A stretch of DNA of 64,000 bases from a virus: the IMG/VR virus record IMGVR_UViG_3300020027_000006, positions 11,245 through 75,244 of that record; one strand, written 5' to 3'. Below the pieces are notes generated by a model. That model saw only the letters and a program-made list of their open reading frames with translations. It was not told the origin of the DNA and ran no database searches. Made by a program: the position numbers and the translations under genes. Every line of letters begins with the position of its first letter. The first letter of the stretch is position 1. This document shows positions 6,587 to 26,505 of this stretch, piece by piece.

Positions 6587-6950
6587 TTGACAAAGCATAT
6601 AAAACTATGATATAATGTATGTGGAGGGGTGCGGGAAAAATAAAAAAATTTAGTTAAATTCCTGCGTCCGATAATGAGTACTGACGCAGGGGAAAAGTTA
6701 CTCTGAAAATTCGTAACCTTTTTGTTTTCAACAGTTTAATTTTTTGACGCATTTTATATAAGATTATATAAAAACAGGGATATTTCACTTGCATTTTGCA
6801 AGTAACTTGAGGATGTAATGCACGTTATGCCAGCAAACAGCTAAATAGATAAAAAGATATGAGAAATATAAAAATAAAACTTTACACACTGCGGAAGTAC
6901 GTAAAGAGAAGAGAAAAAAGGCAACCAGAACGGCTACCTTTTTATTTTTA
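6587..6950 (+). ncRNA. Putative GGGTGCGGG small RNA unit 1
   Basis: TTGACA 6587, TGnTATAAT 6611, GGAGGGGTGCGGG 6623, hairpin plus T tract at about 6913-6950, no credible ORF. Confidence 0.5.
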
Positions 6951-6965
6951 TTTGGTGGGTACTAA

Positions 6966-7889
6966 CTATGCGGTCTTCGTCAAAGCAGCAAGTGCCTTAG
7001 CATTAGATGCCTTAACCTTGTCAGCCTTAGCATCCTCAGCTTCTTGTGCCTTAGCCAAAGCCTTTGCCTTTTGCTCATTTGCACGAGTGACTGACTTAGC
7101 CTGTGCTTCCTTAGCTTTAGCATCAGCCTTAGCAACTGCATCCAAAGCCTTCTGCTTTGCCTTTTCCGCTTTTTCTACTTCCTTAAGGTCAGCCTGTCGC
7201 GTTGCTTCAATTGCACGAAGCTTTGCCTTTTCAGCCTTAGCGGTTTCACGTTCTGCTTTTCTACGTGCGGTTTCCTTACCTAACTCAACCGAACGGAGTT
7301 CCTTAGCCTTTACTCGCTCGGCTTTACGAGCCGCTTTTGCCTCGTCCGCAATACGCTGATTTTCAGCATTTACTGCTTCTCGGGCTGACTTTGCTTCTGC
7401 CTTTTTCGCCTCGTAAGCTTCGGTCGCATTGACACTCGGATGAAATACGTCGTTGCTGTCGGTGAATTCTACCGTCATGATAGCATCACCTTCTTTCCAC
7501 GACTTAGCATCAGGAACCATAGCAGGGATACCTGCATCCTGATATTGACGAGCCTTTGCTTGTTCCTTACGCATAGCCGCAATCTCAGGACGACTTGTCC
7601 ATTCTGTTGCCTTTGCGGTCTGGTCTTTCTTACAGATATTGCGGAACTTGCCGTTTGCAAGCTTCGAGAAATTCGATACACCTTCAACTGTCTTTTCCGG
7701 TGTTCCGCAAACCGAGCATTTAACTTCTGCCGTCTTTACTACTTCTGCCTTAACTACTGCCTTAACTACTTCTTTCGCCGGAGCCGTTGCTGTAGTTTTG
7801 GTCTTCGTTGCCGACTTTGCTGACTTTGCCGACTTCGTTGCCTTAGTAGTTACGTTACCTTTACCGTTTGTCTTTTTATTCGTTGCCAT
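6966..7889 (-). CDS. Lys/Ala-rich histone H1-like protein with CxxC and coiled coil
   Basis: KATKSAKSAKSATKTK N-tail, CSVCG...ICKKD, KA-rich C-terminus; two identical tandem promoters (about 7938, 8069). Confidence 0.8.
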   Translation of the reverse strand: MATNKKTNGKGNVTTKATKSAKSAKSATKTKTTATAPAKEVVKAVVKAEVVKTAEVKCSVCGTPEKTVEGVSNFSKLANGKFRNICKKDQTAKATEWTSRPEIAAMRKEQAKARQYQDAGIPAMVPDAKSWKEGDAIMTVEFTDSNDVFHPSVNATEAYEAKKAEAKSAREAVNAENQRIADEAKAARKAERVKAKELRSVELGKETARRKAERETAKAEKAKLRAIEATRQADLKEVEKAEKAKQKALDAVAKADAKAKEAQAKSVTRANEQKAKALAKAQEAEDAKADKVKASNAKALAALTKTA

Positions 7890-8140
7890 AATTTTAACTT
7901 TGTCCTTTTTACTGTGTCCCTTTGTTTGACTTAATCAGTGTACCAAATGAAAAGCATTTTGTCAACATCTTTTTTAACTTTATTAAAATAAAAAAGTTAA
8001 TTATTTTTGTAAACTTTCCTCTTCACTTTGTCCATTCTTTTTAAGTTACCTTCCTTCGACAAAAATAAGTGTACCAAATGAAAAGCATTTTGTCAACAAA
8101 AATATTAGCAGAAAACCCTGAAAATAAAAAAAGTTTTATG

Positions 8141-8325
8141 TTGACAAAAGATTACTTATATGATATACTATTTGTGGAAGGGTGCGGGACTTCCAGTTGA
8201 GTGATAGATGAAACAGTTGTTGCAGAGACGAAACACAAACACAACAAAGATAAGATAATGAGAAGCTATAAAAGGTTGACATACTGAGGAGCAAAACTCT
8301 GATAAGAAGTCTTATCAGAGTTTAA
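8141..8325 (+). ncRNA. Putative GGGTGCGGG small RNA unit 2
   Basis: TTGACA-17-TATACT, GGAAGGGTGCGGG at 8176, hairpin aaactctgataag...cttatcagagttt. Confidence 0.5.
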
Positions 8326-8378
8326 GTGGTTTCATGGGTTTCATGGGTTTCATGAATTTAATAATTATTAATAATTAG

Positions 8379-10743
8379 TTATACTACGTAGTCATGCCAG
8401 TACTTTAGGTCGTGCTCTTCTAATACTCCTAAAGGAAAGTAACCGTCCGTGAACTCTTCTTCTTTGTATAACATTGAAAAGTCCTCTTTGTAGTAACTCA
8501 TTGCAAATTTCTGTGCTTGGTCTCTATCACGAGCATTTTTTATAAGAGCATAACCATCACGTCGCTTCCTGTCTTTCTGTCCGAAAGTTACAAAATATTT
8601 TGGCTTGGTTTTTTGCATACTAAACTTGTGAATTTTTTTGTCGTACTTGCGGACTCTCCGCAATAGCCTCAGAAATTAATGTAAGCCTTCCCATAAACTT
8701 TGTCTTAGCCATTTGATACCCTTGCTCAAAATGTCCGAGTGCTACTGTTAGACTTCCTATTGTTCCTCGTGCTATAACATTCATTTCGCCAGAGGACGTT
8801 TCATAAACTGTGTTATCAAACCTATCCGCACCAAAAGCTGTCTTAAGGTCTAGCCCAGTACGTGAATTTACATTACAAACAAATACATCCAACATCTTAG
8901 ATGTATGAATATCGGGAAGATTAATATTATCCATAATCACTCTCTCCTGTTCACTGATTATTCACTGATTGTTCGCTTATTATTTCAGTAACTATTGTTA
9001 GTCTATTTGTTAAGCTATTATTAGTCTATTATTAAGCTGATTTGTCATATTCTAAAGTACCTAAACTTTGTGCAAATTCCAGTTCTGTATTCTTATACTT
9101 TATAGCATAACTCGCTGTATGTTTATTAGCAAACCAAAGCTCGAACTCTCCCGTATTTAAGTTGAAAAGAATGTGCTCTTTATTATTACTCATAGAAGTA
9201 ACATACTTATAACCAGCTTTCCTCATCGTTTCCCTGTTATCCATAAATTTTATAGTACCACAAAGAAAGATTTTTGTCAACAATTAAACTCTAACTACTC
9301 TTAGTTTATTATTAAATATTACTTCAGGAAGAGAATCAAATTCTTGAACTGTTAACTTTGATTCTCCTCTAAAGTCGTAAGTATCGCCCATTAATATGCA
9401 AGCTTCGTCCTCATTAGACGCTTTAACGTAATACTCTTCACTGCCCATATCGTTTCCGTCAGCTATTATGTATATTTTCATACTCTCTATATTTTTCATT
9501 TTCTTTGTCATTTTCTTTGTAACTTCATTACGCAGCTTGTTGATTAGCAATCTTAGCTAATTCTTTCTTAACACCGACCGCAACTATACCTTTCCAGTTT
9601 TTTGAATGGATAAGAAAACTAAGCACCGTATTACGTGCGTTCTCTTCCGTAATCTGGTCAAGGTTAAACATTTCAGTAACTCGTTCCTTTGCTTCGCCAC
9701 TAAGATTTGCATAATCTCGTTTGATTGTCCCTGCGAATCTATAAAGTGGCTTATGCTCTGTATTGTTTTCCATAATATGTAGTGTACCAAAGATTTGCTG
9801 CTTTGTCAACAAGAAAACCACACCCTAAATTTTTATTCCTAATGACTTTAGATTCTTATTAAGAATAGCCTCACCTGCTTTTAGATTAGCCTTTACATCG
9901 TTTACTAGGCTTTGTACGGCGTCTAAACCTCCTTTTAAGGTTACTATATAAGAAAGCGGTCGTTTAACCTTAAAACTACGTACATTATAGGTTGCAGTAT
10001 TTTTTTCGATAGTGCCATAACAAACACCCGTATTGCTATCACTTGCAATCTTCTTTTCGAATTTTTCCGTTTCTTTCTTGTTATAGTAAGCATAAAGCAG
10101 CTCATCCACTTTTTCGATTAGCGTATCCATTTCGATGAACCCTATAAAATTTGTCGAAGCTACGTAAATATAAGTCTCTCCGCCACGACCTTCATTTTTT
10201 GCTTCGCCAACACGAACACCATTTTCATAAACAGATGCGGAAAAACAAATTGTTTCCTCACTCATGAATTCCGAAATTTTAATATTTTTTAATGTTATTG
10301 ACATAAGAGTAATGTAGCATATTATTGCTATTTTGTCAAGATAAAAAATTCTTTTTATTTTCTCTATTCTCTATTCTGCTCAGTAATATGTTTGAACTTA
10401 TCTTCTTATTTACTTTATTGGTTAGTTAGATAGGCAATCACTTCTTATTTAATTTTTTTTATTTTTTTGTGATTTGCGGATGAGAAACTACTATATCTTT
10501 TCTTTTTCCTCTTTCCATGTCTTAGTATAATACCAGAAATGAAGGTTGTCAAGTGCGGACATTACTTTTCCTACTAATACTAATTAAATCAATAATATCA
10601 AGCAGTTCATTTATATCAGCATCTTGTACATCGACACGCTCCTCTAGCTTTGTTATCATATTAAACAGGCCAAAGAGCAGTATGAAAATTAGTACAAGTA
10701 CAACTATCAAAAATATACATACACCCATTAGTAAACTTTCCAT
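8379..10743 (-). other. Run of small hypothetical early genes (8379, 8620, 9032, 9284, 9528, 9825, 10549 ORFs)
   Basis: Co-oriented small ORFs, several with their own TTGACA/-10 promoter; 9825..10304 has SEETxCFxAxVYxNGxxVGxAxNxGRGG, a motif I recognise from phage hypotheticals. Confidence 0.7.
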
Positions 10744-10800
10744 AGTAAAATTCTATCATAAAATAAATATAATGTCAACATAAAAAATAGAAAATAAGTG

Positions 10801-11070
10801 TTGACAAAAGATTATTTATATGATATACTATTTGTGGAGGGGTGCGGGTGGTACTTTTTTCCCCGGATTCCGGGGAAAAAGTAAATAAATTTATATGTGT
10901 GTATACGATTCCAGTTGAGACACACTTGACTAATAATGAGAGAGCCCCTCTCTGAGTGGGACTACTCTCTGGTGGGTGAGAGGAGACCTGCTCGATTGAT
11001 GGCAGATAAAGAGAATAGAATAGAAGAGACAAAAAAGCCTGCAAACTTTGCAGGCTCGTATTTTTTTTTG
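10801..11070 (+). ncRNA. Putative GGGTGCGGG small RNA unit 3
   Basis: TTGACA-17-TATACT, GGAGGGGTGCGGG at 10836, terminator agcctgcaaactttgcaggct. Confidence 0.5.
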
Positions 11071-11609
11071 TTTTGTATTTATTCTGTGTTCTTATTTTGC
11101 CAAACAAAATAATCTTTTCCGTATATAGCCTTCATAGCTAACTCGAACATAAAATGTATGTCGTCATTATCATCGTGATAAGTACCATTTGATACTGCCT
11201 TAACTCGTTTTTCTGCTAACCGAATTAAAGGATTCCAGTCTATTTTTGGTTGGACTTTAGGAGATTCACACTTGGGTTCAAATATAAATTCCCCGTCAAT
11301 AAAATCTATTAATTGTATTTGACGGAAAGTTGTTATTGATTCTTTTGACATATTAAATCTCTAAAAAATTTGTTAGCTTGTCGCGGAGTTCATCTAATTC
11401 AGACCCGTCAGTTTTGAATCTTGACTCTATATTAAGAGTATCTGCTATATCTTGCTCCCCTAATACGGCCTGTGCTATCACCATAGTCATAGCAAGTTCT
11501 CTACGTGAAAACCCTTTAATACCTACTCCTTCCTCAGTTTTGCTTACCGTTATTTTTCTTAGCGTCTCTTTGTCCATATTTTTAATAGTAACACAATTAA
11601 AAATATTTG

Positions 11610-12095
11610 TCAAGAGGTTGTTTTAGTAATTTCATATGCGTTGTAAACCCACCCATCCTCTAAAAAAGTGTCGTATATTTTACCATCGCGAATACAAAAT
11701 ACATGACCCCATAAATTAAAGTCAGTTGTCATTAATACATAAGTACCGACTGGATGAGCATCTATAAAACTTTTAATTGTGGTGGTCTTTCCTTTACCCC
11801 ATGTATTGATAATGGTGGCCTCGTGTCCAAAGAAAGTACGCTCTTCATAGAACGACTTCATGGGATGTATATTCCAGCCCCCGAACTTTCTCCAGCCGAA
11901 ACGCTTTGCTACATACCAAACATCAGCGTAGTCTGCACCTGTGGCATGGACTAATGTTCTAACTCCGCAATCTCCTATTTTATTTTTTCCCTTTGTTGCG
12001 GACACCCCTGATGCCCACCTCCCGCCGTCAGAATAAACAAAATGCTTATACATTACACTAAATTCTGGTGTGTATTTTTTCAGTAACTTCAACAT
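11610..12095 (-). CDS. Conserved phage protein, possible Cys peptidase-like fold
   Basis: GDCGVRTL...GHVFCIRDGKIYDTF (Cys-His-Asp pattern); leaderless-type promoter. Confidence 0.6.
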   Translation of the reverse strand: MLKLLKKYTPEFSVMYKHFVYSDGGRWASGVSATKGKNKIGDCGVRTLVHATGADYADVWYVAKRFGWRKFGGWNIHPMKSFYEERTFFGHEATIINTWGKGKTTTIKSFIDAHPVGTYVLMTTDFNLWGHVFCIRDGKIYDTFLEDGWVYNAYEITKTTS

Positions 12096-13795
12096 AGATA
12101 TAAGTGTAACATATACTTGTTAAATTGTCAAGAGAAAAAACCATAAAGCAGAGAATAAAAATGAAAAACTCTGCTTTATGGTTTAATTGCGGAACGAAAG
12201 ATTGCACCCCTAACTTTGTCCGCAAGGTCAGGACGAACTGAATCCAAATGATTGAACAATGCTTGACCGTATCGCCAGCCTTTTTGGTTAGCTAGTGTAA
12301 ATGCGAAAAAATAGAATTTGTGTAATGTCATATAGTAAATTAAGTGTAGCAAATGAAAGACATTTTGTCAACATAAAAACTAATCCGGTTCTTCTACCAA
12401 TTCAAGAAAACGATTTTCCGTGTCAACTTGTTCGTCGTTAATAGCTAGTAACAGATTGCTGAGACACTCTTTAGCATCATTTCCTTGTGCTACTGATTCT
12501 GACCCTGTATCTTGATACATTACTCTAAACATTTTATTTTCTCCTATCTCTATCGCAAAGTAACATGAAAACTGCAAAACATAGAAAAATTATTGCTATG
12601 TTTTGTAACAAATCCGTTAATCCAAGTAATGGCATATATTTATTTTCCCCTCATGCGGTTAAAGAGATAAATTGCATAACATTTGGCACAGTCTCTAACT
12701 GGTTTTATAAGACCTCCAATAGCCGTTATAGCTAAACCAATCATCCCTATCTCATCTGAGCAAATATGTAATACCATAATTTTTTCCAGTTCTACTTTAT
12801 TTACTGTTTTTTCTTTCTCTCTCTTTACCCGCCTGTTGTGCCTTACACCCTTCAGCGTAATAAGTTATAAAAGCAACGATTAAAGTTAAAACAACACTAC
12901 CAACACAAAACACCTTAAATTGCATAACTTAAGTGTAGCAAAATGTTCTCCTTTTGTCAACATAAACTTAGCAGATTTTATTTTTCATTAAATTCTTAAC
13001 AGGAAGATGATTATATCCCTGTATATACATAAACGGACTACGTATTCCAAACTTGCTCAGGTTTCTTAAATAATCGACTTCACGTGCAGCTACAACCTTA
13101 AGGTCAGAACTAGCCAAAGCCTTTATTTCTGCATCTATTGAATCCAGAACAGTGAATAACTCGTTTGAACTTATTCTAGTTGCCATAGTATTAATCTCCA
13201 CTAAGTAAATAGTGTATCATATAGTAATCTAATTGTCAAGAATTATTTCCAGTTGAGTAAGATAAAAAATTATTAGTGGGAAAAGGCGTCCGATAATGAG
13301 TCTCTAATGAGTCTCCATCCTCGTCACGAGCAGGTAAACCCGATTCTTCTTCTCCTCCACAGAGTTATTTGTTTTATTACAGCAGATATTACAGCAGAGA
13401 AGAAAAACCTCCAACTTTCGCTGAAGGTTTTATTGTATTATATTGTATTTACCGGTATTAAAAGAGGTTAGAGAAAGACGCTTTTGCACGTGAAAACAAA
13501 GTAGCCGTTAAAGCCTTCTTTGCAATTTCTTCCCAGTTCGCGGTTTTCTTATACTTATTCCAAGTAGTTCTATCAGGATAAGGCATATTGTTAAGTGTTG
13601 CAAAAGATTTGACCTCTATTACTAGACCATCGAGGAGTTCCATTTTTCGGTCTAGTTCTATACTGCCAAATAATCCTTTAAGCGGTGTTTCGGTGAGTGC
13701 TTCAAACTTTAGTACCGCTTCTCCAAAATATCCCTTTTTATCTTTCATACTTAATAGTACCAAGTAATTATTACTTTGTCAAGAAATAATAAAAG

Positions 13796-14200
13796 CTACT
13801 CAATTCCGCAAATATAAAAAATATAATTTTTATACTCCTCATTAAGTTTAGTCTCATGAATCCATTGACGGGCATTAGGAAAATTATAGTCATAGTTTCG
13901 GGTATAACCATTAGTTTTTATAATTCCCCAACTATAATTCCCTTTAATAGTTCGAGTCTTACAATTAACTTCCATGTTTATGTATTTTGGATGAACCATT
14001 GATTTATTAAATACAGCGGCCCAAAAAGCATAATGTTTTTCATCAACACGTCTTATACTGGAGCGTTGAATCATCCAAACTGTGACCTCAGAATTTATTC
14101 TACTAAAGAGTACATCATAATCTTTAGCATTAGACGACTGACCAAAAGATGCAATATTTGCACTCACTACCAAAACAATTAACATTAAAATATGTTTCAT
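13796..14200 (-). CDS. Secreted/periplasmic protein
   Basis: N-terminal signal peptide MKHILMLIVLVVSANIASFG-QSS. Confidence 0.65.
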   Translation of the reverse strand: MKHILMLIVLVVSANIASFGQSSNAKDYDVLFSRINSEVTVWMIQRSSIRRVDEKHYAFWAAVFNKSMVHPKYINMEVNCKTRTIKGNYSWGIIKTNGYTRNYDYNFPNARQWIHETKLNEEYKNYIFYICGIE

Positions 14201-14271
14201 AATGTAATCATCTTAACAGGAATTAGATAACTTGTCAAGAGTTATCTAATTAAATATGAAAAATATTTTTG

Positions 14272-14425
14272 TTGACAAAAAATATGGTTTTTAGTACACT
14301 ATATTTGGTTAGGAAGTAAATCTCTTGACCGTAATTTAGATAGACCCTTTAATGTGTGTTTGTTTAAATAATGCTGAGAGGAAGGGTAGCAGTGAACAAC
14401 CAAGCTGCTACCCTTCCTCTTCTCT
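14272..14425 (+). ncRNA. Putative structured small RNA or strong terminator
   Basis: TTGACA-17-TACACT then about 120 nt ending in long stem gaggaagggtagcag...ctgctacccttcctc. Confidence 0.4.
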
Positions 14426-14810
14426 TCAAATTAAATTCCAGCTAATTTTTTTCTACGTGCGGAGCGGCAAAGAGCGTGTTCTAAAGTAGAACATATTTTG
14501 TTAAAATCCCCTAGCCGAGGGTTTTCCATAGTCTCAACCGCAAGTTCAAATAAATCGTCAGCCAACCTATCAGCCTGACTAGACAGTGATAATAAAATAT
14601 AAAAGGGCATGAGATACCTCCTAGAAATTATAGATATTCGTCTAACTCTTCGTCGTAGCCTAAATCCTCGTCCTCATAGACCCATCCTGAGTCTATGATA
14701 ACTTCGCCTTTAGAGGTTGATTCCATTTCATTTATTACGCTTGGGTTTTCGAAATGATTTTGTATGAGCCAGATTACTCCATCTTCTGAAATTTCGACTG
14801 ATGTGTATTC

Positions 14811-15422
14811 GTGGAAAATTTTTCCTGCTTCTGCGGACATAAAGAAGTACCTCCTTTAGCTGATTTCATGGTATCATATATTATTATGATTCGCAAGGGA
14901 ATTTCAGAAGTAAGTTGGGAGACTGTACGAAGACTTGTCGACAGTGGTGAAAGAATAGTTGACATTGAAAAACGATTCAACGGAGCCATAACCGCATCAC
15001 AAATCTCGTACAAGAAACAACTTTGGAAAAAAGAAGCTTATTGCAAAGGTGATAACAAGTATTCAAAGTATCAGACACCTGAATACCGTGCTTGGCGTAA
15101 AGCTGTTCTTATCAAAGATGGGTTTAAGTGTATAGTATGTAAACGTGGAAAACCTGCTGTTAAGGTGCTACAATGTGACCATATAAAAAGTTATTCACAG
15201 CACCCCGAATTGCGTTACAACGTAAACAATGGTAGAGTACTCTGTGTATATCATCATAAACGTACTTTGAATTACGGATTCAAAGCTCTAAAATGTAATG
15301 ATGAGGATAACGGGGATACATGGGTTAAACAGGAGCAAATATTATGGAAGCAACAACTAATAGAGAAAACAATAAAGAAGAGACTTCAAAAATCATTAAA
15401 GAAGCCAATCTCGAAGCGATGA
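14811..15422 (+). CDS. HNH endonuclease
   Basis: WRKAVLIKDGFKCIVC...DHIKSYSQHPELRYNVNNGRVLCVYHH. Confidence 0.85.
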   Translation: MENFSCFCGHKEVPPLADFMVSYIIMIRKGISEVSWETVRRLVDSGERIVDIEKRFNGAITASQISYKKQLWKKEAYCKGDNKYSKYQTPEYRAWRKAVLIKDGFKCIVCKRGKPAVKVLQCDHIKSYSQHPELRYNVNNGRVLCVYHHKRTLNYGFKALKCNDEDNGDTWVKQEQILWKQQLIEKTIKKRLQKSLKKPISKR

Positions 15423-15611
15423 TAACAACTCTAAAAAATCGTGAGGATAGAAAAGTGCCTCAAAAAATTCGTTCAAAGAAACGTCGCCGTGCTGCTGCTA
15501 AGGTTGCTCGTAACTCTCGTAAAACTAATAAGTAAGTAGAATAAACATATCCAATCATTTAATAGTTACTAATTTCAATAAAAAAATGAATGAGTTCAAT
15601 ACCTTTATTCT

Positions 15612-15866
15612 TTACTTATTTTTTTTGATATACGCGGTCGGAGGGCCGGGCTTCCGGTGTCGAAATTCCTCCAATGCTTTTCCATACACGAGTGTCTTGC
15701 CAATAATTTCTTCCGTTTCCAATCGACCCCTTTTGATTAATTGAGAGATAGCCGAACGGTCAATTTTTTTCCTACTCGCGGCCTCTCCAATCGTAACCAA
15801 ATCCAATCGTTCAATAAGCGACTCCAATTCAATTTTCAATTCTTTTAATCGCTCTTTGTCTGTCAT
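15612..15866 (-). CDS. Helix-turn-helix (excisionase-like) DNA-binding protein
   Basis: VTIGEAASRKKIDRSAISQLIKRGRL. Confidence 0.7.
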   Translation of the reverse strand: MTDKERLKELKIELESLIERLDLVTIGEAASRKKIDRSAISQLIKRGRLETEEIIGKTLVYGKALEEFRHRKPGPPTAYIKKNK

Positions 15867-17027
15867 TTTTACCCATGTACTGGAGCTGTGTACTTAAACT
15901 TTTGCTTTATGTCAATTGAGTGCTTTACACTTACGTAATTCATACAAACTATCATTCGGTCAAGGTCTTGTCTTGTGGCTTGCGGAAACATGATAGCTCC
16001 TGTTGCATTGGATTTTACTTGATACGTACCATCATCACTCTTTGAAACTTCCATACCCGAATTAGTTAGCTTCCGGAGCGTGTCTCGTATATCGGAGGTT
16101 GCTACAAGAAAGAATGTTTTATTGTTTGTCATATGTTTTATTCTCAACGTATAATTAGCTTACCAAATGGAAGCTAATTTGTCAATACTTTTATTGGTTC
16201 ACTAAGCAGTTTGATTAACTTATCTTCAACTTCTTTGAGAAAGTCGTCTTTACCTAATACATCAGCCATAGGAGTTCCATAATCACTCCATCCTTCGGAT
16301 GTTATGTTATTCTCGAATGCTTCTACTATAATTGTTATTATTTCGTTTTTCATTATATTATCTTACCAAATGGAAGCTAATTTGTCAACACTTATTTTCC
16401 AGTTGAGGTTATTTTATTTTTATGTACTCATGTGCCCATACTTCTCGTTCTTCCAACCCCCATGTGAGCAAGCCACAACTCTTCAGTTTTTCCGCGTCCG
16501 ATAATGAGTAAATTGAAAATTTAAAAACCGTGCCTGATATTTCTACCAAACACGGTAAATTTTTTATATCTTTTGCGGACGAAAGAATAAGGTTGCCTTA
16601 AATACCCATCATCTCAGACACCGAGAACGAGACCCAACTTTGACCCTTATATCTTTCGTTTTGCTTTGCTTCTACTACAACGATTATATCTGGTAGTGGT
16701 GCTACTACCTTTTCTGCAGTTTGAACCGTGTACTCGCCCTTAACACGTCTTTGTTCGGTAATGGTGAATAGCTTTACAAAGCCACAGCTAAATTGAATGT
16801 CGTATGTATTACCTTTCTTTGGACAGTTAGTTGATTTGTTTCCGCACTTCGTTAAAAACGGGCAAATTTTACCCTTACGTATTTTTAACGACTTCGTTAT
16901 GTTGTTCAAGGTTGCCATAGAAGTATATTAGCAAATAATGATTTGTTCATGTTCGTAATCTTTAATTATCTTACTAAACGGGAGTTAACTTTGTCAAGTA
17001 AAAAGTGGGAGTTTTTTACTTTTATTC

Positions 17028-17390: not shown

Positions 17391-17734
17391 ATGTTTTCTT
17401 TACGTCCTTTAACGTAAGGATATAATAGCACAAATTTAGAATAGTGTCAAGAGAAAAGAGAGTTTCTTTATTTTAATTAACTGAAGCTGTGTTATGCAAA
17501 ACTTCTTTACCCTCGAGCTCCGCAAGTTCTACAGCAAGGAGTCCCTGTTTAGATTTTGGTACACGAAAGAATTCGCGAGCCTTTTGTGTCGCCTCCCAAA
17601 GACTCCCTGCATCAATAATATGTTGTTTTTGATTGTAAAATGCAATGTATTTGTTCATATAATTATCTTACCAAACGGGAGTTAACTTGTCAACAATTTT
17701 CTTAGATTTTTGAAAAAAGTGGGAGTTTTTTTCT

Positions 17735-18211
17735 TTAATCCATACGCGATTCTGCATAACAGTTAATACCAGAATTTTGCAATACTTTAGCCATTGCACT
17801 TGCATGAGCATATTTACGCTCCATGCTTTGTCCGTAATCACCCACCCGAATATCGTAACCACCCGTGTAGCTTGTTCCTTTACAAATGCCTTGTGCTTTA
17901 AGCCATTTAGCAAAGGCACTGGTTGCTGGCTTAACTTTTACCCATGCAAAACCGCAAACACCGGAATAGATAACTTCCACAGACTTGCTCATGTCTATTT
18001 CATTCGAAAATAAATCTTTAGCTTGCCCGACGACCATTGGAGTAGGAGTGCAAGCCTTAGCAGCTGTTTGTCCTGCAAGCATTGCACGGTCGTATAGTTC
18101 TCGAAATGTTTCAGCTTTAGGTTTACTATTAAATCTTTGCGGTACATCCGACTCAAGTAATTGTTCGTAAGTTAAAATGTCAGGTTCGTTGTTCATAATT
18201 TTGTTCCTCAA
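17735..18211 (-). CDS. Conserved phage hypothetical protein
   Basis: GVCGFAWV...QSMERKYAHA...YAESRMD. Confidence 0.7.
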   Translation of the reverse strand: MRNKIMNNEPDILTYEQLLESDVPQRFNSKPKAETFRELYDRAMLAGQTAAKACTPTPMVVGQAKDLFSNEIDMSKSVEVIYSGVCGFAWVKVKPATSAFAKWLKAQGICKGTSYTGGYDIRVGDYGQSMERKYAHASAMAKVLQNSGINCYAESRMD

Positions 18212-18272
18212 CTTTAACTATATTAGCATATCTAAATTAGTTTGTCAACATAAAAACAATTAAAAATAAGTG

Positions 18273-18450
18273 TTGACAACACAGAATTTATATGATACAC
18301 TATTTGTGGAGGGGTGCGGGTGTTATATTAAAGAGTACAGTGCGTCCGATAATGAGTTTATTCTCTACGGTATGAGCAAGTATCTTTGTCCTCCCTTTTT
18401 TCTTACTGCTGAAGGAGTGAAAAAGGAAGCAGTTTCCTACTTCCTTTTAT
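18273..18450 (+). ncRNA. Putative GGGTGCGGG small RNA unit 4
   Basis: TTGACA-17-TACACT, GGAGGGGTGCGGG at 18308, terminator aaaaggaag...cttcctttt. Confidence 0.5.
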
Positions 18451-18886
18451 ATTGCTTTTGTACTGCTTCTTTATATCTTTTGCGGTTTCGTTGTACCGCT
18501 TCGACCGTTGCCAGCCTAATATGATTACTTGTTCGCATATAATTTACATCGAACGCGGCGTCCAAAGCTGACTTAAGAGTGTTGAAAATCTTACTTTGTT
18601 CTATTTCTGCTTCTGCTTATTTATTTATCATTTAATCCTTTCCTTCGTAATTATCTTTCAAGTCTCTCATTCGTTTTCCGAAATACCCTGCTGAAAAATT
18701 CAAAGGCAAATCATAAGGTATGTTTACACCAAATCGGTTAGTAGCATCACGGTCACCTTTACTTTTAATCAGTTTGTGCCGTTCCGACATAGCTTGCTGT
18801 ATTCTGTTGTTCGTTTCGTTTGCCATAAATAGATATTAGCAAACGAAAATGATTTTGTCAAGAGAATAATCCCGGATTCCGGGATT

Positions 18887-19189
18887 TTATTTAGAGAACA
18901 AAAGCGGAGCACTTTCTAAAAGTTTCATAACTGCGTTGTATTCGTCCATTATGCCCTCATTCGGTTCGATGTCCCAACCTCTGTCGTAATTAACTATTAC
19001 GCCGTCAAACCAGCTGTTAGTTGTATTACTTCTACAAAGTTCTCTAATACTAAGTTTGGAAACTCTTCCGTTGTTTATTCCAAACATCGAACCTGTATCA
19101 AACAGTTTAGCCTCAAACTCATAATTCTTGCCGACTAATCCGTTGACCCAATTATCTTGTAAATCAAATTTTGTGAATTGTGCTTCCAT
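18887..19189 (-). CDS. Conserved phage hypothetical protein
   Basis: FGINNGRVSKLSI...NYDRGWDIEP; RBS AGGAG. Confidence 0.7.
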   Translation of the reverse strand: MEAQFTKFDLQDNWVNGLVGKNYEFEAKLFDTGSMFGINNGRVSKLSIRELCRSNTTNSWFDGVIVNYDRGWDIEPNEGIMDEYNAVMKLLESAPLLFSK

Positions 19190-19236
19190 AAATACTCTCC
19201 TCTACTAAATAGATATTAGCAAATAGATTCTGTTTT

Positions 19237-19793
19237 GTCAACACTTATTTTTATCCTTTTTGCTTTTCTCTTTATTCGATTCATTTCTTTTTTATAAGAT
19301 AAAACATACCACTCGTTTTTCTCACCGAAAGAAAGAAATTTCAAAGATTCTTCTTTATCAGGTCTTATAAAACTTATTTTAATATGTCTTGTTGAGGTTT
19401 CAGGAAAACAGGTAAAAATAAATTGTACTGGCTTAAATTTTATTTTTACACCTTTAGATATAAAAGATTGTAAATTTTCAACAGATAAAAATGTGCTGTT
19501 AAATATACTTACTTCATAACTAAAATAAAAATAAATATACAGAATATCTAAATAATTTAAATCAAACCATTCTCCTTTTATTCTTTTATGTTCGAAAATA
19601 ATATGAAGATTTTTTTCGTCAGAGATTTTATCCTTATGGGATTAGACGACTGTAAAGCACAAAATCTCGACTTCATCTCACAAGTTCTTCCTATTTTGGT
19701 TAGTTTATTTTTACTGTCATAAGCTAGGTAAACGTAGTCATCACCCCTAAATAGTGAATCGTGAGTTTTAGTATAGCGAGTAATAAGCTTCAT
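19237..19793 (-). pseudogene. Frameshifted T5orf172/GIY-YIG-like nuclease
   Basis: YVYLAYD...KIGRT...LQSSNP in one frame; EKNLHIIFEHKRIKGEWFDL continues in another frame from about 19630. Confidence 0.7.
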
Positions 19794-20600
19794 TAAATTA
19801 ATGCTCCAAAATAAAATATAATGTCGATACTTACTTCACCCTTCTTGTTTTATTTTAGCTTGTTCTTGCTGTGCAATTAGTTCTCTAATGTTTTTAGCGG
19901 AACTTACTTGGATGCCTGTTAGATTTACGTTTGTCAGTAAGTCTTTCATCTCACCCTCAGCACGTACCTTTTCGAGTAGCATAGTAATTCGAAGTTTTTG
20001 GAAAGTATCAAAACCAACAGAAAAATTCCAGTAGTCAGTGTCTGCTATTTCGACAAACCTGTATAGATGATGCCCTTTAGCGTTATCAAACGCCTCATTT
20101 GATTCACGGTAAGCCCCGTAAAGACCGCCGAGTGCGGCATAGTATTCACCCAAACAATACATGAATCTTTTTCTGTCTGTTTCATTTTTGAACATAAAAT
20201 TATATTAGCAGATAAATTCTAATTTGTCAACACTTATTTTAGTCTTAGTTATAGAACTTTTCTCACTTTAGTCGTCATAGATGGGACATCCTCTCGAATA
20301 ATCATACCATCTAAACACTCGTTGTTAGCAGCGATTGAGTAACCTAATCCTTGTGAACGAGGATGATTTAGAACCCATGTTTCGACCCAAAACATATTGC
20401 GTTCTATTTTAGAAACAGAAGCTCCAACAAATACATTATAAATTCGTCCATTTCCTTTTTTGAATTTCAAAACAAATGCTTTTCCTCGCGTTTCGATTTT
20501 ATGATTCAAAAGAATAATTGGTAGTAACTGTTTGTCCATCATAAATAGATATTAGCATAAATAAATCGCTTTGTCAACACAAAAAAGTAGAAAATAAGTG

Positions 20601-20765
20601 TTGACAAAAGATTATTTATATGATATACTATTTGTGGAGGGGTGCGGGAGAAATAAAAACTGTGAAGAAACAGGAGGCACACCTGCTCGATGGGTGGAGT
20701 AAAGAGAGGAGAGAAAAGAGAGAAAAGAGAAGTAAAAAAGCCTCTGATTTCTCAAAGGCTTTTTG
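20601..20765 (+). ncRNA. Putative GGGTGCGGG small RNA unit 5
   Basis: TTGACA-17-TATACT, motif at 20636, near-copy of unit 7, terminator 20734-20765. Confidence 0.5.
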
Positions 20766-21780
20766 TTCGTAAGTTTTAGTTTGATTTAGACGGTGACCGA
20801 ATGTACCGTTTGACGTTTGAAGGCTTTGTCAGCAAGCTGTGTTACTTTACGAACCCAAAACTCAATGTTGACATTTTTCTTTTTGTCAACCGTTACGACT
20901 CGAACCAGTTCAGTGTCATTCTTTTGAAATGAACGAACGGTCAAGGTGGTTACAGAAGTTCGGTTTTCGATTCGATTTCGTTGTTCGCGTGTCATTTTTT
21001 CTTGTTCCTTTGCGGATACTCCGCGTCGTACCTTCAGATTGCGACAGGTGGCTCGTTGCCGTTTGTCAGAAATACATTAGATTTTTTCAACCCTCCATTC
21101 TTCCACTTGGACAAGTTTTCCGTTCGATTGTTTAATAACCAAATCAGTTTGGTGAGGGTATTTTTTTACTTCTACGATAGTAACTTCCGCAAAGCCATAT
21201 AAAACTTTTTCACCTTTGCGGTAACTCAACTGGTAAAGATTTATTCCGTGAAATTTCATAGTAACCTCCAACTAAACTTAATAATACCATAAACAAACTG
21301 TTTTGTCAAGAGTTATTTTGTGTTAGTCAAGTCTTTTCATATTTGTAAACCATGCGGACGGATAGGCATAACTAACTTCCGAAATAACTGCAACTGTAAT
21401 TTTATTGCTATTAATTTCTTCTGTTTTACGTGCAATCACTTTAGCCGTTTCAAGTGTTCCTATATGGTCTTGTATCCAGTTACCTGAAATAATACCATCT
21501 GCTTCGCTATGTACATTAATAAGTGAAAACCTCATAATTATTCTCCTCGTTTATATTTGGACTTGCGACCGACTTTATCGGCTTTACTTGCTCGCTTCCT
21601 ATCACGAAACACCCGAACGACTCCGCCTGTAGCAGTTATCATATCTTTGATACGCTCATCTCGTATTCGTATATCGTTAGGATTTATCTTTATACTTTCC
21701 ATAAACAGATATTAGCAAATAGATTCTGTTTTGTCAACACTTATTTAATAAAATTTTTATTTATTTTCATTGTTTTTATG

Positions 21781-22010
21781 TTGACAAAAGGTTACTTATA
21801 TGCTATACTATTTGTGAAAGGGTGCGGGTGTAAAATTATGCTTCCAGTTGAGAAAATCCCGTCAAACTGCGACCACGCTACAACTACTATTACTCTTCAC
21901 TGACATCTTCTCCTCCCAGTGAAGCAAGGGGCCATACGAGCATTATTTCCTCTCCTAAGAGTTCAGAAGTAAAAAAGCTCCTCCGATTTCTCGAAAGAGC
22001 TTGTGTATTT
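21781..22010 (+). ncRNA. Putative GGGTGCGGG small RNA unit 6
   Basis: TTGACA-17-TATACT, GAAAGGGTGCGGG at 21816, terminator at about 21971-22010. Confidence 0.5.
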
Positions 22011-22518
22011 TTTGTGGTTTGCGGACTTACTCAGCTTCTAAGTATTGATAGTTGCCTGAAATAAAAGCTGAGAGCTGATGTGCAAGATGTTTAACTCCTT
22101 GTTCGTCTAAAATAACTGACGCATAATCGTTGCTATCGTTGTTATGAGTTTTGTCTTTTATATATATCTGAACTGCTCGACCTATACTCGAACCGGCAAA
22201 AAACGCGACTAAAGTTATATCCTTTGCATCTTCCTCGTATTTAGGATGTCTGCCTTGTATTTTTCGTAGTGTTGTTGACATAAGATAATATTAGCATAGA
22301 ATAATTATTTTGTCAAGATTTATTTTTAAGTAAATTGACTTTTATATCTTGCTCTATCAAAACGTCGATAATATCATCATCATCATCGCTCCAGTCTATC
22401 ACTGACCCATCATCGCCTTGTATCGGAGTTTCCGATTCTAGCAATTCTAGCCGTCGATTGAGTTCGTGAAATATAACTTCGTCCGTCTGCTTTTCTTGTG
22501 GCATATTTTTTATTTACT

Positions 22519-23256
22519 TTATTTAGTCTTACCTTTTAGGTAACTGTTGAGTGTCTTAACACTTTTTGACCCTCTTGATAAACTAAAAACCATAGTCTGA
22601 GATTCCCCGTAGGTATGCCAAATTGTTTTGCCGCCCCTTGTTGCGTATAATTCCCTGATTGTTCGTGGAGTTTTAGTTCCGTCGAACCGTGCAAGCGGGT
22701 TTAGGTTAGCCCATGCGGTTTGTACTCGTCCAGATAGCTTACCATCATAGCCTAAATCTGCCCAAACTTTATAACCAACTGATTTATCCGACCGTGCATC
22801 ATTACGTAGAGCAAATGTGGATATATAAGATACTTTAGCTTTTTGTGCGTCCGCGACTTGTGTAGAAAATGATTTCGTACCAAGTCCTTTACCTTGTGCG
22901 GACGGAGAAAGAAAAAATGCATCGTTGCGGACAGTAAGTTTTCCATCCGCATCTCGGTACATTGTTCGCGTCATGCCGTCTGATTTGCTTATGTACTTAT
23001 GAGATATATCAACTTGCAACCGACCATCACGAAGTCCTATTTCGACTTTTGCACCGGAAAACGCTCCTGCTCCAGCAAGATTAGCAATATCACTTCCTGA
23101 CATTGGCTTACCAAATAATTTTCTAGCAAAAGCTTGTTCGGCTTTATCATAACCTTCTATATCAAAAGAGCTACCACCAGAAGATGAAGATAGTGCAGCA
23201 GCCGTCGCATTAAACTTGCTGCTTCCTCTACTTGTACTGTTTCCGCGACCGCCCAT
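22519..23256 (-). CDS. MGGRG-leader protein with GNAT-like acetyltransferase domain
   Basis: Starts MGGRGNSTSRG; acetyl-CoA motif A-like FFLSPSAQGKGLGT and GYKVWADLGY. Confidence 0.65.
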   Translation of the reverse strand: MGGRGNSTSRGSSKFNATAAALSSSSGGSSFDIEGYDKAEQAFARKLFGKPMSGSDIANLAGAGAFSGAKVEIGLRDGRLQVDISHKYISKSDGMTRTMYRDADGKLTVRNDAFFLSPSAQGKGLGTKSFSTQVADAQKAKVSYISTFALRNDARSDKSVGYKVWADLGYDGKLSGRVQTAWANLNPLARFDGTKTPRTIRELYATRGGKTIWHTYGESQTMVFSLSRGSKSVKTLNSYLKGKTK

Positions 23257-23257
23257 A

Positions 23258-23848
23258 TTAAGCCTCTCTCCAAGTCTTATTAGATTTAATTGAGTAAACT
23301 ATATCTAATGTAAGTTCGGAACAAGATATTTTTTCTAATATCTGCGGAGCAGTAAATTTATTTTTTAATAAGTGTTTAACTTGATATGCTATTTCTTTAT
23401 TGATTCTTTGATTAGGCTCATGTCCTTTTGGAAAAGGGTTGAAAGCTTTCATTCCTTTATAAAACCTACGCCCTTTACACTTATTGCCAGTTGCTTTGCG
23501 TTCTCGGTCTTTAGCCCTCATATCATCAGAATTGATTTTATGGTCACCTTCAAAAAGATGTTTAGGATTAACACAATTTCTAATATCACAAGTATGGCAT
23601 AAAAATAGTTTTTTGTCAATAAATAAATTATTAGCAATTATAAAAGAAACATGATGTACTCTTTTAGTTTTATCATTTATTGAAACTTGTCCGTATTCTT
23701 TTTCATTAGGGTTTACTTTGTTTTTCTTTGTCGCCCCAGTCCACAACCAACAGCCTTTAATGTTAGCATCTTTAATTACTTTATCAAAAAAATTATTTAA
23801 TTGTTTTTCCGTAATAAACTTCATTTGCGATTTTGAATGTTTCAACAT
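23258..23848 (-). CDS. HNH homing endonuclease
   Basis: GCWLWTG...YGQV...RVHHVSF...CHTCDIRNCVNPKHLFEGDHKIN. Confidence 0.9.
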   Translation of the reverse strand: MLKHSKSQMKFITEKQLNNFFDKVIKDANIKGCWLWTGATKKNKVNPNEKEYGQVSINDKTKRVHHVSFIIANNLFIDKKLFLCHTCDIRNCVNPKHLFEGDHKINSDDMRAKDRERKATGNKCKGRRFYKGMKAFNPFPKGHEPNQRINKEIAYQVKHLLKNKFTAPQILEKISCSELTLDIVYSIKSNKTWREA

Positions 23849-24665
23849 GTAAACTTACTGTATCTTTTTCATTATAACCTCCTGCCATAACAAATACAAT
23901 AGGGATATTCATTTGTTTCGTAAATTCAAATACAGAACGGTCACGTTTTTGTAGTTCTAATTTAGTTAAAATTCCACTTCCTAAGCTATCATGAATGTAT
24001 GCATCCATACCCGCTTGATAAATAATTAAATCAGGTTTAACATCAAGAATAGTTACAAAAGATTCAGCCAACGCTGCCTCGTAATCTATCCAACTTCTTA
24101 CTTTTCTACTCCAACTATGTATTGTTTCCTCGTCTGAAGAAAGTGCCAAACCAAAAATACTGAAATTATAAAGGTTATCAAGTTGTCTTGTAAAATCTCT
24201 TGTTCCATCACCAAAGTGAATGTCCACATCGAGTACAAAAACACGTTTATCAGGCAGTTCTTGTGCGACTAAAGCTAATCCGTTAAATGTGCAATAAGCC
24301 GACCCCCTGTCATAGGATGAATGATGAAAACCCGCAGCTATACAAGAACTAATTCCAGTGCTTAAAGCCTGTTCAGCAGCCGGAACCATAGATTCATTAA
24401 TGGCTAGAACCCCGTCTCTAATTTCTTTTGTCCAGTTCCATCCATTTGAACTTGCTAAATGTCCTTCTCCTTTAACAAAAGCTTCTACATATTTCGGACT
24501 ATGCAATTTGGTTAATTTATCAATTATATGTTCATCTGATTTTGATTCTATGATTTCAGATAGACCGATTTCTTGAACTTCTTTCGAGATTAAAGAAAGT
24601 TTTCGCATCGAAAGTGTGGGAGTATCTGCAAAAAATTTAGATTTATAGTATGTAGGTATCTTCAT
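23793..24665 (-). CDS. Histone deacetylase family (Zn-dependent) deacylase
   Basis: GFHHS, AYCTFN, LDVDIHFGDGT, YQAGMD, DSLG, GGY motifs. Confidence 0.92.
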   Translation of the reverse strand: MKIPTYYKSKFFADTPTLSMRKLSLISKEVQEIGLSEIIESKSDEHIIDKLTKLHSPKYVEAFVKGEGHLASSNGWNWTKEIRDGVLAINESMVPAAEQALSTGISSCIAAGFHHSSYDRGSAYCTFNGLALVAQELPDKRVFVLDVDIHFGDGTRDFTRQLDNLYNFSIFGLALSSDEETIHSWSRKVRSWIDYEAALAESFVTILDVKPDLIIYQAGMDAYIHDSLGSGILTKLELQKRDRSVFEFTKQMNIPIVFVMAGGYNEKDTVSLHVETFKIANEVYYGKTIK

Positions 24666-24870
24666 AATTTATTGTGTAGGCAAATTCCAATTTAAGTATA
24701 TCAAAGTTTTATTATTTTGTCAACAAATAAATTTAAGAGGTGTACTCCCTCCCAGTGAGCAGGGAAAAAAGCAAGCCCGTCATCCTCTCTGCTCCAGAGA
24801 AAAATTTAGAAGAGAAGTAAAAAGACCCTGCTTGTGCAAGGTCTCTTTCTTTTTCTAAGGTTTTAAGTGT

Positions 24871-25160
24871 AATAGTTACTAATTTCAATGAAAAACAATG
24901 AAATTAACTTTAAACTTTTAACAGTTTTGGGCTAACTAAAAAGCCCTCTACTTCGTTCGGAAAAACCTCTCCAAGTTTCTTTTTTAGAATATTCAATGCA
25001 GCGTTATAGTCAGCATTAACTGAATGAATGTAATACAAGCCATTGCTTTGTTGTGCTTACTTGCTAATCTGCAGAATTAGTTTTCAGTCAATTGGTTTAA
25101 GTTAACGCATAATGGTTTCCTCCCGACTTTAAGTCTTTACCAATCTCGAATACTTACCTT
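24871..25160 (-). mobile_element. tnpB: Internally deleted IS200/IS605/IS607-type element: TnpB C-terminus plus right end (omega-RNA region)
   Basis: Encodes HSVNADYNAALNILKKKLGEVFPNEVEGFLVSPKLLKV* (RuvC-III ADxNAAxNI) followed by a hairpin end. Confidence 0.75.
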
Positions 25161-26339
25161 CGACAATTAAAGTGTAGCAAACTAGAACTTGTTTGTCAAT
25201 ACAAAAAATATTTTATTTTTCAATTGCCGTGAAAAATTTATTGCCCTTACTTCGGACGGGTTCAACGGTCATTGAATCGAATCCCATTTCATCACCAAGA
25301 ATAGACCATGCATGGTTTGCGTTTTCTTGAGGAGATGAAGGAGATGTGCCACCTACGACCAAATAAGGAACAGACCTGCTTGCATCCAAAAGTTTCTGCA
25401 ATTGTTCATCAGTTAATTCAAATTCTTTTCTCATTGTCTTTCTCCAATCAATTTAATTTGTTCTAGGCTCCGTTTTGTCGGACATCAATCAATTTGTTTA
25501 TGGTTCAACACTAAATCTGAAATTGATTGACATTAATAGTCAAGCATAGGCTCCGGACTGTTGCCATATCCCGTAAACCCTGCATATTTATAATTTGTAT
25601 TTCATAACACTTATTTTTACCGTTCGCGGACTACCTTATATATGCCGCCTTTGCGTATAAATGCCCTATAACCTCTTTTTATCCAGTTTAGGAGTCCTTA
25701 CTTACACTTTCCGCATAATTCATTCCCCAAAGGATATAATTAGCTAATTCAAATCTAGTAACTTCATACTTAGATTCTACATTACCATTGAAAATCTTAT
25801 CCGCTTTTTGAAATGCTACTTCGGTTAAATCTTTGGCAGGTAACGCATCTAACTTACCTCTTAAGAAACCTCTCCAATAAGCCATTTCATAGATTCGGAC
25901 AAACGTATCCTCCAAGTAGGTTGGTCGTCTAGGTTGGTCGTCCTTTACCGCCCAATCAGCCACAGCATCTGAAATTATTGAATTCATTTCTATCTTATTC
26001 ATATTAAAATATTACCATAAAAAATTTAGTTTGTCAATAAGAGTTATCTACACTTAATTTTTCAAATGCTTGCCACCCTTTAATGACTATTAAAATGCTT
26101 GCCGATATAATAGCTGTATAGCCTAAAATTAATCGAATAACGTCCTCAACTACTACTAACTGGAAAACCTCGTCTAAGACGTTTGACATCGTAATAAAAG
26201 CCATTACAACTATAAAGGACAAGACCATTATAGCTATATCGAACTCCGCACCATTGAAATATTTTTTCATAAGTAACCTCAACTGCTACTATACCAAGTT
26301 TTTATAATTTTGTCAACATAAAAAAGTAGAAAATAAGTG

Positions 26340-26505
26340 TTGACAAGTTAGAATTTATATGATATACTATTTGTGGAGGGGTGCGGGAGAGATAAAAAAC
26401 TGTGAAGAAACAGGAGGAGGCACATATACCTGCTCGATGGGTGGAGTAAAGAGAGGAGAAGAGAAGCAGTAAAAAAGCAGCTAAATGTTTCCACTTAGCT
26501 GCAAC
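26340..26505 (+). ncRNA. Putative GGGTGCGGG small RNA unit 7
   Basis: TTGACA-17-TATACT, motif at 26375, terminator gcagctaa...ttagctgc. Confidence 0.5.

Follow-up and report, generated by a model that had tools for sequence, protein, structure and literature searches.

Divergent promoter units with an invariant tag in the early region of an uncultured phage: a probable family of regulatory RNAs

Introduction

To our knowledge, catalogs of phage small RNAs are still sparse, and they contain hardly any conserved family with multiple copies. T4-type phages are said to carry promoter-early stem-loop (PeSL) cassettes, a description attributed to Arbiol et al. 2010, and Cluster K mycobacteriophages reportedly contain start-associated sequences (SAS/ESAS), attributed to Pope et al. 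2011. In this study, we analyzed a 64,000-nt stretch of viral DNA (hereafter the window), which comprises bases 11245-75244 of the 75,244-bp IMG/VR virus record IMGVR_UViG_3300020027_000006; completeness of this record was judged to be 56%. The early region of the window contains seven units (u1-u7), in each of which a strong predicted promoter is followed by a 13-nt tag, ending in the invariant nonamer GGGTGCGGG, and by a short body without a credible open reading frame (ORF). Promoter and tag are referred to below as the cassette.

Like PeSLs, the units are built on a repeated early-promoter cassette in a plastic early region, which is more alike between copies than the surrounding genes are; presence/absence of the cassette (it is missing from two otherwise similar islands) and mosaic recombination are further similarities. 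However, PeSLs are co-oriented with the small ORFs that they drive and have no invariant transcribed leader, whereas here the cassette opposes the genes, drives no ORF and is most conserved in a transcribed part (+5 to +13). The likeness to SAS/ESAS lies in an invariant G-rich 13-nt motif with a Shine-Dalgarno (SD)-like core, at about 10-20 per phage genome. While SAS directly precede the start codons of co-oriented genes, the motif described here is the predicted transcript start and no gene follows it.

Other systems share only parts of this design. The lambda PR'/6S/qut and RfaH/ops systems also combine a strong constitutive promoter, a conserved element that reaches from the promoter into the start of the transcribed region, and a short terminated product that contains no ORF, and the tag resembles ops in being a G-rich 12-13-mer on the non-template strand. 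In contrast to these systems, the units are multicopy and antisense to their neighbors, and have no pause element and no co-oriented genes directly downstream. CsrB/RsmZ and multicopy small RNA (sRNA) families likewise consist of several paralogous ORF-less RNAs with high (here predicted) expression, which suggests that dosage matters, and GGA and SD-like motifs are enriched; however, the units have no GGA hairpin-loop array and no Rfam match, and it is a single 5′ tag that is conserved rather than a repeated internal motif. The SP82 polypurine (Hue et al. 1995) and STAB-SD elements are similar in having a purine-rich SD-like extreme 5′ end on an early RNA in a phage of a Gram-positive host (PMC7509114, PMC3997798), and by analogy the tag could bind the 30S subunit without translation and block RNase J1. 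Here, however, the SD-like bases are variable and the invariant GGGUGCGGG is not an SD sequence. The family is akin to PeSL cassettes and phage sRNA families, and is set apart by its orientation, lack of ORFs and invariant transcribed tag.

Results

Seven promoter-plus-tag units

The nonamer GGGTGCGGG was found exactly seven times in the window, always on the plus strand (Table 1), whereas 0.03 copies were expected by chance, as estimated from shuffled sequences. No further copy was present in the remaining 11 kb of the 75-kb record. All seven copies are located 11 nt past a near-consensus sigma-A-type promoter, TTGACA-17/18-TGnTA(T/C)A(C/A)T, in which the -10 hexamer is TATACT in most units, TATAAT in u1 and TACACT in u4. 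An original prediction, made from the letters of the window, had reported seven near-perfect promoters facing opposite to the surrounding genes. Both their coordinates and their direction were confirmed, the neighboring genes being assigned to the minus strand on the basis of ORF lists and homologs in related contigs. The same prediction had the invariant sequence begin at +1; when the start is placed 7 nt after the -10, however, the nonamer corresponds to +5 to +13, and the predicted transcripts should begin G(G/A)A(G/A)GGGTGCGGG. In aligned copies, the conserved module spans from the -35 box of a back-to-back leftward promoter to +13, where it ends sharply.

The units are oriented against leftward early genes. 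Small early-type genes on this strand extend to approximately 32.2 kb in the window and are followed by a rightward block from 32.4 kb (first plus-strand gene at 32429), which includes terminase, portal and tail genes. Expression of the genes around the units is attributed to approximately 40 leftward promoters that broadly resemble those of the units. At about 17 minus-strand promoters (TTGACA-17-TGnTAnnnT) between 1600 and 26100 in the window, an ATG is located 5-7 nt past the -10, and these mRNAs are predicted to be leaderless. The earlier picture of a multicopy family of predicted ORF-less transcripts, with very strong host-type promoters and many leaderless early genes (about 17) beside them, was supported. 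The promoters and SD sites resemble those of low-GC Gram-positive bacteria, and the host is probably of this (Firmicute) type. Leaderless early starts are unusual for a phage with Firmicute-type signals; they also recur in the related contigs described below.

Table 1. Positions in the window of the units and of the other features discussed in the text
Feature	Span (strand)	Promoter	Predicted start	Nonamer	Tag	Other elements
u1	6587..6945 (+)	6587-6616 (TTGACA-18-TATAAT with TG)	6623	6627	6623-6635	Body ~320 nt; module C 6664-6678; ends at hairpin 6915-6943 of convergent 307-aa gene
u2	8141..8321 (+)	8141-8169	8176	8180	8176-8188 (GGAAG variant)	Module B 8191-8201; hairpin 8296-8321
u3	10801..11056 (+)	10801-10829	10836	10840	10836-10848	CCGGATTCCGG hairpin 10863-10873; module B 10909; CTGC-N8-TGG module ~10988; two-way terminator 11036-11056
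u4	18273..18448 (+)	18273-18301 (-10 TACACT)	18308	18312	18308-18320	Module C 18342-18356; hairpin 18421-18448
u5	20601..20764 (+)	20601-20629	20636	20640	20636-20648	CTGC-N8-TGG module 20683; GA-rich tract; hairpin 20735-20764; body near-identical to u7
u6	21781..22002 (+)	21781-21809	21816	21820	21816-21828 (GAAAG variant, no SD-like site)	Module B 21842; hairpin 21975-22002
u7	26340..26502 (+)	26340-26368	26375	26379	26375-26387	Body paralogous to u5; hairpin 26477-26502, without plus-strand U-tract
Island without promoter	13245..13431 (+)					Module B 13247; module C 13286; between leftward promoter and minus-strand terminator
Second island without promoter	16397..16556 (+)					Module B 16397; module C 16494; terminator hairpin 16527-16556
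Unit-like body	29340..29452 (-)	No strong promoter			No tag	Module C; GA-rich tract; CTGC-N8-TGG; beside iteron region
Leaderless-type promoters, examples	(-)	26037, 22316, 21737, 20577, 20230, 18861, 17693, 16388, 12960, 10778, 10339, 9809, 9280, 1651				
Further ORF-less promoter-terminator unit	24734-25199 (-)	25199				Terminator 24848-24819
Deacetylase-family gene	23793-24665 (-)					Early gene
Region with iterons	29200-30160					Next plus-strand promoter at 30161
CCGGAWTCCGG cores	10863, 18872, 26852, 47069					
Large terminase ORF	33204-37940					1578 aa
HNH/homing endonuclease genes	14811-15422, 23258-23848, 42880-43746, 44473-45405					

Conservation of the cassette in related phages

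A metagenome scan with promoter plus tag identified 13 contigs, 11 of which represent related uncultured phages (L044-L051 and L053-L056; L046 and L051 share one unit). Proteins of these 11 contigs are 30-70% identical to early proteins of the window, and the homologs include the 307-aa protein beside u1/u2 and a deacetylase-like operon. A relaxed search within the contigs brought the number of further copies of the -17 to +13 block to 21, with up to four copies per 5-6 kb. All 28 copies oppose ATG-led ORFs, and no ORF follows any of them. As in the window, the copies in relatives are multicopy, antisense to genes and divergent from a leftward early promoter, with a variable gap between the two -35 boxes. 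Positional correspondence could also be traced: u2 is the counterpart of the units in L044 and L051 that adjoin the homolog of the 307-aa gene.

Among the 27 distinct copies, the region from -17 to +13 (TG, -10, ATTTGT discriminator and tag) is nearly frozen, with no information in the -35/-10 spacer or from +14 onward; part of this block conservation follows from the search design, in which promoter plus tag served as the query. When up to three mismatches were allowed anywhere in the 13-mer, nine copies were found, with changes only at +2 to +4 (GGCGG, GACGG, GCGGG), and the variants in the window (GGAAG in u2 and GAAAG in u6) fall within the same positions. By comparison, +5 to +13 is invariant in all 27 distinct copies, which is more than the known reading of downstream duplex DNA by RNA polymerase would account for. 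Twenty of these copies start with GGAGG, and six variant tags start with GGCGG. The confinement of variation to +2 to +4 implies that the SD-like appearance of GGAGG is not what selection maintains. Every exact GGGTGCGGG in the family marks a predicted start, except for an in-tag triplication in L054. In that contig (L054:5114-5142), the tag is extended to three tandem GGGGTGC repeats, resulting in four G-tracts, and an intramolecular quadruplex is possible.

The units had no match in described RNA families (Rfam), cultured phages or the literature. In cultured phages, blastn of the 63-nt cassette returned only generic matches to its promoter half, and a literature search for the motif retrieved only unrelated eukaryotic papers. 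Motif scans of IMG/VR gave 36 and 4 matches, all of them unrelated single copies without promoter context, and GTDB genomes gave one chance match. No Rfam 15 family matched anywhere in the window at gathering thresholds; at E<=5, positions 6000-27000 had only weak sub-gathering matches, none of which fell on a tag or on a body beyond its terminator end. A close cultured relative of the phage was not detected by megablast of 6 kb, and tblastn matches reached only about 23% identity. A portal-based search found no IMG/VR relatives of the window, and a scan for tRNA/tmRNA was negative.

Terminators and coding content of the units

No credible or conserved plus-strand ORF was found in any of the seven units. 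The sole SD-led ATG, at 20690 in u5, opens a frame of 29 codons that shrinks to 11 codons in the near-identical u7, from which u5 differs by indels of 1 nt and 7 nt. The absence of a credible ORF, which had been claimed for each unit, thus holds.

The intrinsic terminators that had been assigned to the units themselves turned out to be terminators of convergent leftward (minus-strand) genes. In six of the seven units, folding of the unit-end hairpin is favored by 1-8 kcal/mol on the minus strand (-14.7 to -17.5 kcal/mol, compared with -6.6 to -13.7 kcal/mol on the plus strand), because G-U pairs of the minus strand become C-A mismatches on the plus strand. The U-tract is good on the minus strand in all units and poor on the plus strand in u2, u6 and u7. 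Since the terminators belong to the convergent genes, a unit represents the spacer between the terminator of one early operon and the promoter of the next, read backwards. Based on predicted transcript ends, the unit RNA and the convergent mRNA would overlap only in the terminator hairpin that they share, barring read-through from one side or the other.

Unit bodies and RNA structure

Conservation across the family does not extend to the bodies, which are mosaics drawn from a limited repertoire of short modules, including TTCCAGTTGAG (module B), GCGTCCGATAAYGAG (module C), CTGC-N8-TGG, and a GA-rich or A-rich tract before the hairpin. TTCCAGTTGAG and GCGTCCGATAAYGAG were also found, with order and orientation preserved, in two terminator islands without a cassette, and a unit-like body was present on the opposite strand. 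In addition, u5 has a promoter spacer in common with u3 and a body in common with u7, such that the near-identical bodies of u5 and u7 follow different spacers. These islands, the opposite-strand body and the double affinity of u5 indicate that cassette and modules recombine independently. A reading of the islands as C-rich Rho sites on the minus strand was also considered and was rejected, as G-C skew was inconsistent across the family.

No fold was common to all units, and none was found around the CTGC-N8-TGG module. In eight units (JRYL contigs and L044), the tag is predicted to pair with a CUGC-pyrimidine element at -12 to -18 kcal/mol, compared with -6.0 +/- 3.4 kcal/mol for random 14-mers. 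In an alignment of 11 sequences, 84% of cells were paired in the tag:CUGC register versus 43-54% when the partner was slid. The consensus fold of the 11 units contained only the tag:CUGC helix, without compensatory changes. True covariation is absent because the tag side never varies. In the family as a whole, the best duplexes of the tag within its own RNA were no better than those of shuffled sequences, a continuous 7-bp complement to the tag occurred in 9 of 27 units (5-7 expected), and a search for targets elsewhere in the phage genome returned only its own antisense.

Discussion

Proposed tagged non-coding RNAs

We give a probability of roughly 45% to the reading that the units encode early, abundant non-coding RNAs with an invariant 5′ tag that would be recognized at the RNA level by a putative partner. 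This reading goes beyond the observed anatomy, conservation, orientation and lack of ORFs in positing transcription from the predicted start, high abundance, a role played by the RNA itself and the existence of a partner. The units would be genes for non-coding RNAs of approximately 100-330 nt, made early and at a high level by host sigma-A RNA polymerase from the conserved cassette, which stands back to back with an early-gene promoter and would direct transcription at the terminator of the early operon before it. Function would be determined by the first 13 nt of the transcript, and the promoter geometry (-10 and ATTTGT discriminator) may be kept so that each RNA starts at the same base, as G-N-N-R-GGGUGCGGG. 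The 5′ tag could then serve for recognition by a protein or RNA partner, either on the RNA itself or while it is being transcribed. Dosage would come from the multiple copies, much as for a decoy or sponge, and the bodies would be exchangeable mosaics; in one sub-family, pairing of the CUGC-pyrimidine element with the tag might also shield the 5′ end.

Several observations favor this reading. All seven exact copies of GGGTGCGGG share one context and one strand, and the block recurs 21 times on 11 contigs, where the neighboring proteins share only 30-70% identity with those of the window. Variation spares +5 to +13 and falls at +2 to +4, while the spacer and the sequence past +13 are free. Exact copies of GGGTGCGGG occur only at predicted starts, apart from the triplication in L054. 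The u5 and u7 bodies are near-identical in spite of their different spacers, and no ORFs are present. The predicted tag:CUGC pairing in eight units, and the multicopy, divergent and antisense layout in all relatives, point in the same direction. Other findings weigh against RNA-level reading of the tag. No covariation supports the helix, given its invariant tag side; the members have no structure in common, and a general pairing partner for the tag within its own RNA did not reach significance. The -17 to +13 block is one unbroken stretch of DNA that includes the discriminator, which would fit a DNA-binding site or a homogenized promoter cassette, and the occurrence of modules B and C in promoter-less islands suggests that bodies may matter as DNA or as the other strand.

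A more specific version, which we regard as doubtful, is that the 13-nt 5′ end recruits a dedicated protein, of phage or host origin, to each RNA, with the exchangeable bodies serving as a panel of guides or decoys. The logic of a constant tag plus a variable body would resemble that of CRISPR RNAs, but each RNA here has its own promoter and there are no repeats. Such a panel may be linked to a switch between SD-led and leaderless translation, or to anti-defense. At a more general level, the units probably represent a new family of phage regulatory RNAs, judging from their organization in the window and its relatives.

Alternative explanations

The main rival, close to the alternative in the original prediction that only the act of transcription matters, is that the cassette acts only in cis: a strong promoter firing against the incoming early operon, and placed back to back with the next early promoter, would insulate transcription units, either because polymerases reading through collide with those that it launches or because antisense RNA pairs across the shared terminator, and the RNA would be a by-product. 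The cassette may also feed negative supercoils to the divergent promoter, with the G-rich start only tuning promoter escape. This would account well for the position of the units, which are found in nearly every island holding a minus-strand terminator, and for a divergent layout that is kept in all relatives despite changes in the -35 to -35 spacing. It also agrees with the terminators belonging to the other strand, with the lack of body conservation across the family, and with the leaderless nature of many downstream genes, which makes them dependent on an exact start at their own promoter. Conservation of a transcribed region is likewise a feature of the strong early promoters of T5. Nevertheless, we find a purely cis-acting role rather unlikely, as it leaves nine invariant transcribed bases unexplained: invariance of +5 to +13, where proteins are 30-70% identical, is far beyond the needs of promoter escape. 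In addition, two terminator islands have no cassette, and only three of the seven partner genes are leaderless. Two further readings are also compatible with an unbroken -17 to +13 block. In one of them, which appears improbable, the block is a loading site for a processive antiterminator or elongation factor (as in lambda PR'/qut or RfaH/ops), and a recruited phage factor would allow polymerase to pass the weak plus-strand hairpins, so that antisense transcription silences early genes and/or extends into the rightward virion genes. The conserved element is indeed one block over the promoter and the initial transcribed region, the factor-free product would be a short ORF-less terminated RNA like lambda 6S RNA, and the plus-strand hairpins are weak, some without U-tracts. 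All seven units face the plus-strand late block, in which the same pattern finds no strong sigma-A-type promoter, and six variant tags start with GGCGG, as ops does. However, the initial transcribed region has no qut-type -10-like hexamer that could act as a pause element, +1 to +13 being G-N-N-R-GGGTGCGGG with nothing conserved beyond, and the 12-nt ops consensus GGCGGTAGnnTG was not matched: only GGCGG is shared, in six variant copies, at +1 and with no operon after it. No co-oriented late genes lie directly behind the units; the nearest plus-strand block, at 32429, is 6-26 kb downstream across the early genes, and polymerases from the seven copies, which are dispersed over 20 kb, would need to traverse this distance on antisense DNA. 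Moreover, no Q-, RfaH- or LoaP-like gene was seen among the few proteins screened (no Q-like protein among 28, in a record that is 56% complete), and neighboring small proteins gave no significant Pfam match as KOW/NusG-like.

The other reading that fits an unbroken block, to which we attach somewhat less weight, is an R-loop or hybrid G-quadruplex device. Here the G3 tracts of GGG-TGC-GGG, present in the nascent RNA and on the non-template strand, would form a stable rG:dC hybrid or a DNA:RNA G-quadruplex just past the start, keeping the region unwound to prime replication or to modulate adjacent promoters. The invariant part consists of exactly two G3 tracts with a 3-nt loop right after the start, one relative has GGGGTGC three times in tandem and hence four G-tracts, A/T-rich sequence often follows the tag, and a candidate iteron origin is located in the same early region. 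This leaves the invariant TGC loop and the discriminator unexplained; seven sites in 20 kb are many for origins, and most copies have two G3 tracts, which do not permit a quadruplex within one molecule. The function put forward in the original prediction was that the RNAs could titrate the anti-SD of 16S rRNA (and with it 30S subunits) or else a protein of the CsrA type, thereby favoring leaderless phage mRNAs. In a milder version, the 5′-terminal SD-like tract would bind 30S and stabilize the RNA, as the SP82 polypurine stabilizer does. GGAGG starts predominate among the distinct copies and leaderless early genes adjoin the units. The density of SD-like sites in the units is 0.9 per 100 nt, 5-12 times the background (0.075 outside the units on that strand, and 0.18 for coding strands). 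Translation-independent SD-like 5′ stabilizers are established in Bacillus, where such a tract stabilizes phage SP82 RNA (PMC7509114, PMC3997798). On the other hand, the SD-like positions are the only variable positions of the tag, and GGCGG, GACGG, GCGGG and GAAAG are not SD-like. In five units, no site reaches -9 kcal/mol in pairing with a 16S 3′ end, eight units have a tag that is predicted to be engaged in intramolecular pairing, and GGA motifs are few (0-9 per unit, none in u6) and mostly paired (0-4 unpaired in the minimum free energy fold). A G at position 2 also creates a preferred RppH substrate (PMC3997798), which argues by itself against a simply stable 5′ end. As a conserved function, neither anti-SD nor CsrA-type titration was supported; titration has little probability on our assessment and is at best a side effect in some members. 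The least probable of these readings is that the units encode micro-peptides, either as M-x-G-C-G... from a GTG located two bases ahead of the predicted start or as short ORFs with L-x-x-x-W at their end. Every copy keeps GTG-NNN-GGG-TGC-GGG in frame, with the variable bases as codon 2, and the CTGC-N8-TGG module translates as L-x-x-x-W, directly followed by a stop codon in four units. But the GTG would be only 5 nt past the -10, and leaderless initiation needs AUG; the peptides would span 7-73 aa with unrelated tails, and the L-x-x-x-W frame is in phase 1, in phase 3 or closed relative to the 5′ end, with no consistent start or SD. Both coding readings were rejected on account of these inconsistent frames, the lack of third-position variation in GGG-TGC-GGG across 27 distinct copies, and u5/u7 indels that are not multiples of three.

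Whichever reading applies, a 30-bp signal has been kept fixed in uncultured phages of a diverged family, whose hosts are probably of Firmicute type, and up to seven or more predicted abundant RNAs per genome, identical or nearly so in their first 13 bases, are found amid many leaderless early genes. If the tag is read as RNA, it would imply a new RNA-protein (or RNA-RNA) interaction in host takeover, and the combination of -10, ATTTGT and tag would provide a search key for more members. If the cassette acts only in cis, it would be a clean natural example of promoter-based insulation of early operons.

Other features of the phage

Another ORF-less promoter-terminator unit is present in the early region (Table 1), in this case on the minus strand, which is the gene strand. 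Close to it, an early gene on the same strand codes for a histone-deacetylase-family protein (Pfam PF00850, E 1.6e-32). This gene and a neighboring 245-aa gene are both kept in L056, with 49% identity for the deacetylase-family protein. The palindromic hairpin core CCGGAWTCCGG occurs four times in the window versus 0.01 expected, serves as a two-way terminator-like element and is present in one copy inside u3; similar GGAWTCC-loop hairpins were found in L044, L053 and L056.

Approximately 1 kb without ORFs, located between the last early genes and a plus-strand promoter, contains five CTATCTATGAAAC-like iterons (one of them inverted) and several TGCGGAC sites, and is a candidate replication origin. 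In the whole record, the hexamer TGCGGA occurs 62 times on the plus strand and 30 times on the minus strand, compared with about 7.5 expected per strand, and for TGCGGAC the figures were 25 against 5. A T-run lies 7-8 nt upstream of 27 of the 62 plus-strand sites (background 6%). The hexamer is also enriched about 8-fold, on both strands, in the related contigs. Some copies code for part of a recurrent C-terminal W-[LM]-S-A peptide, and others are intergenic.

In the rightward block, the large terminase ORF probably contains inteins, since its terminase matches are split into separate stretches and an endonuclease-like insert is present. At least four further HNH/homing endonuclease genes were detected in the window.

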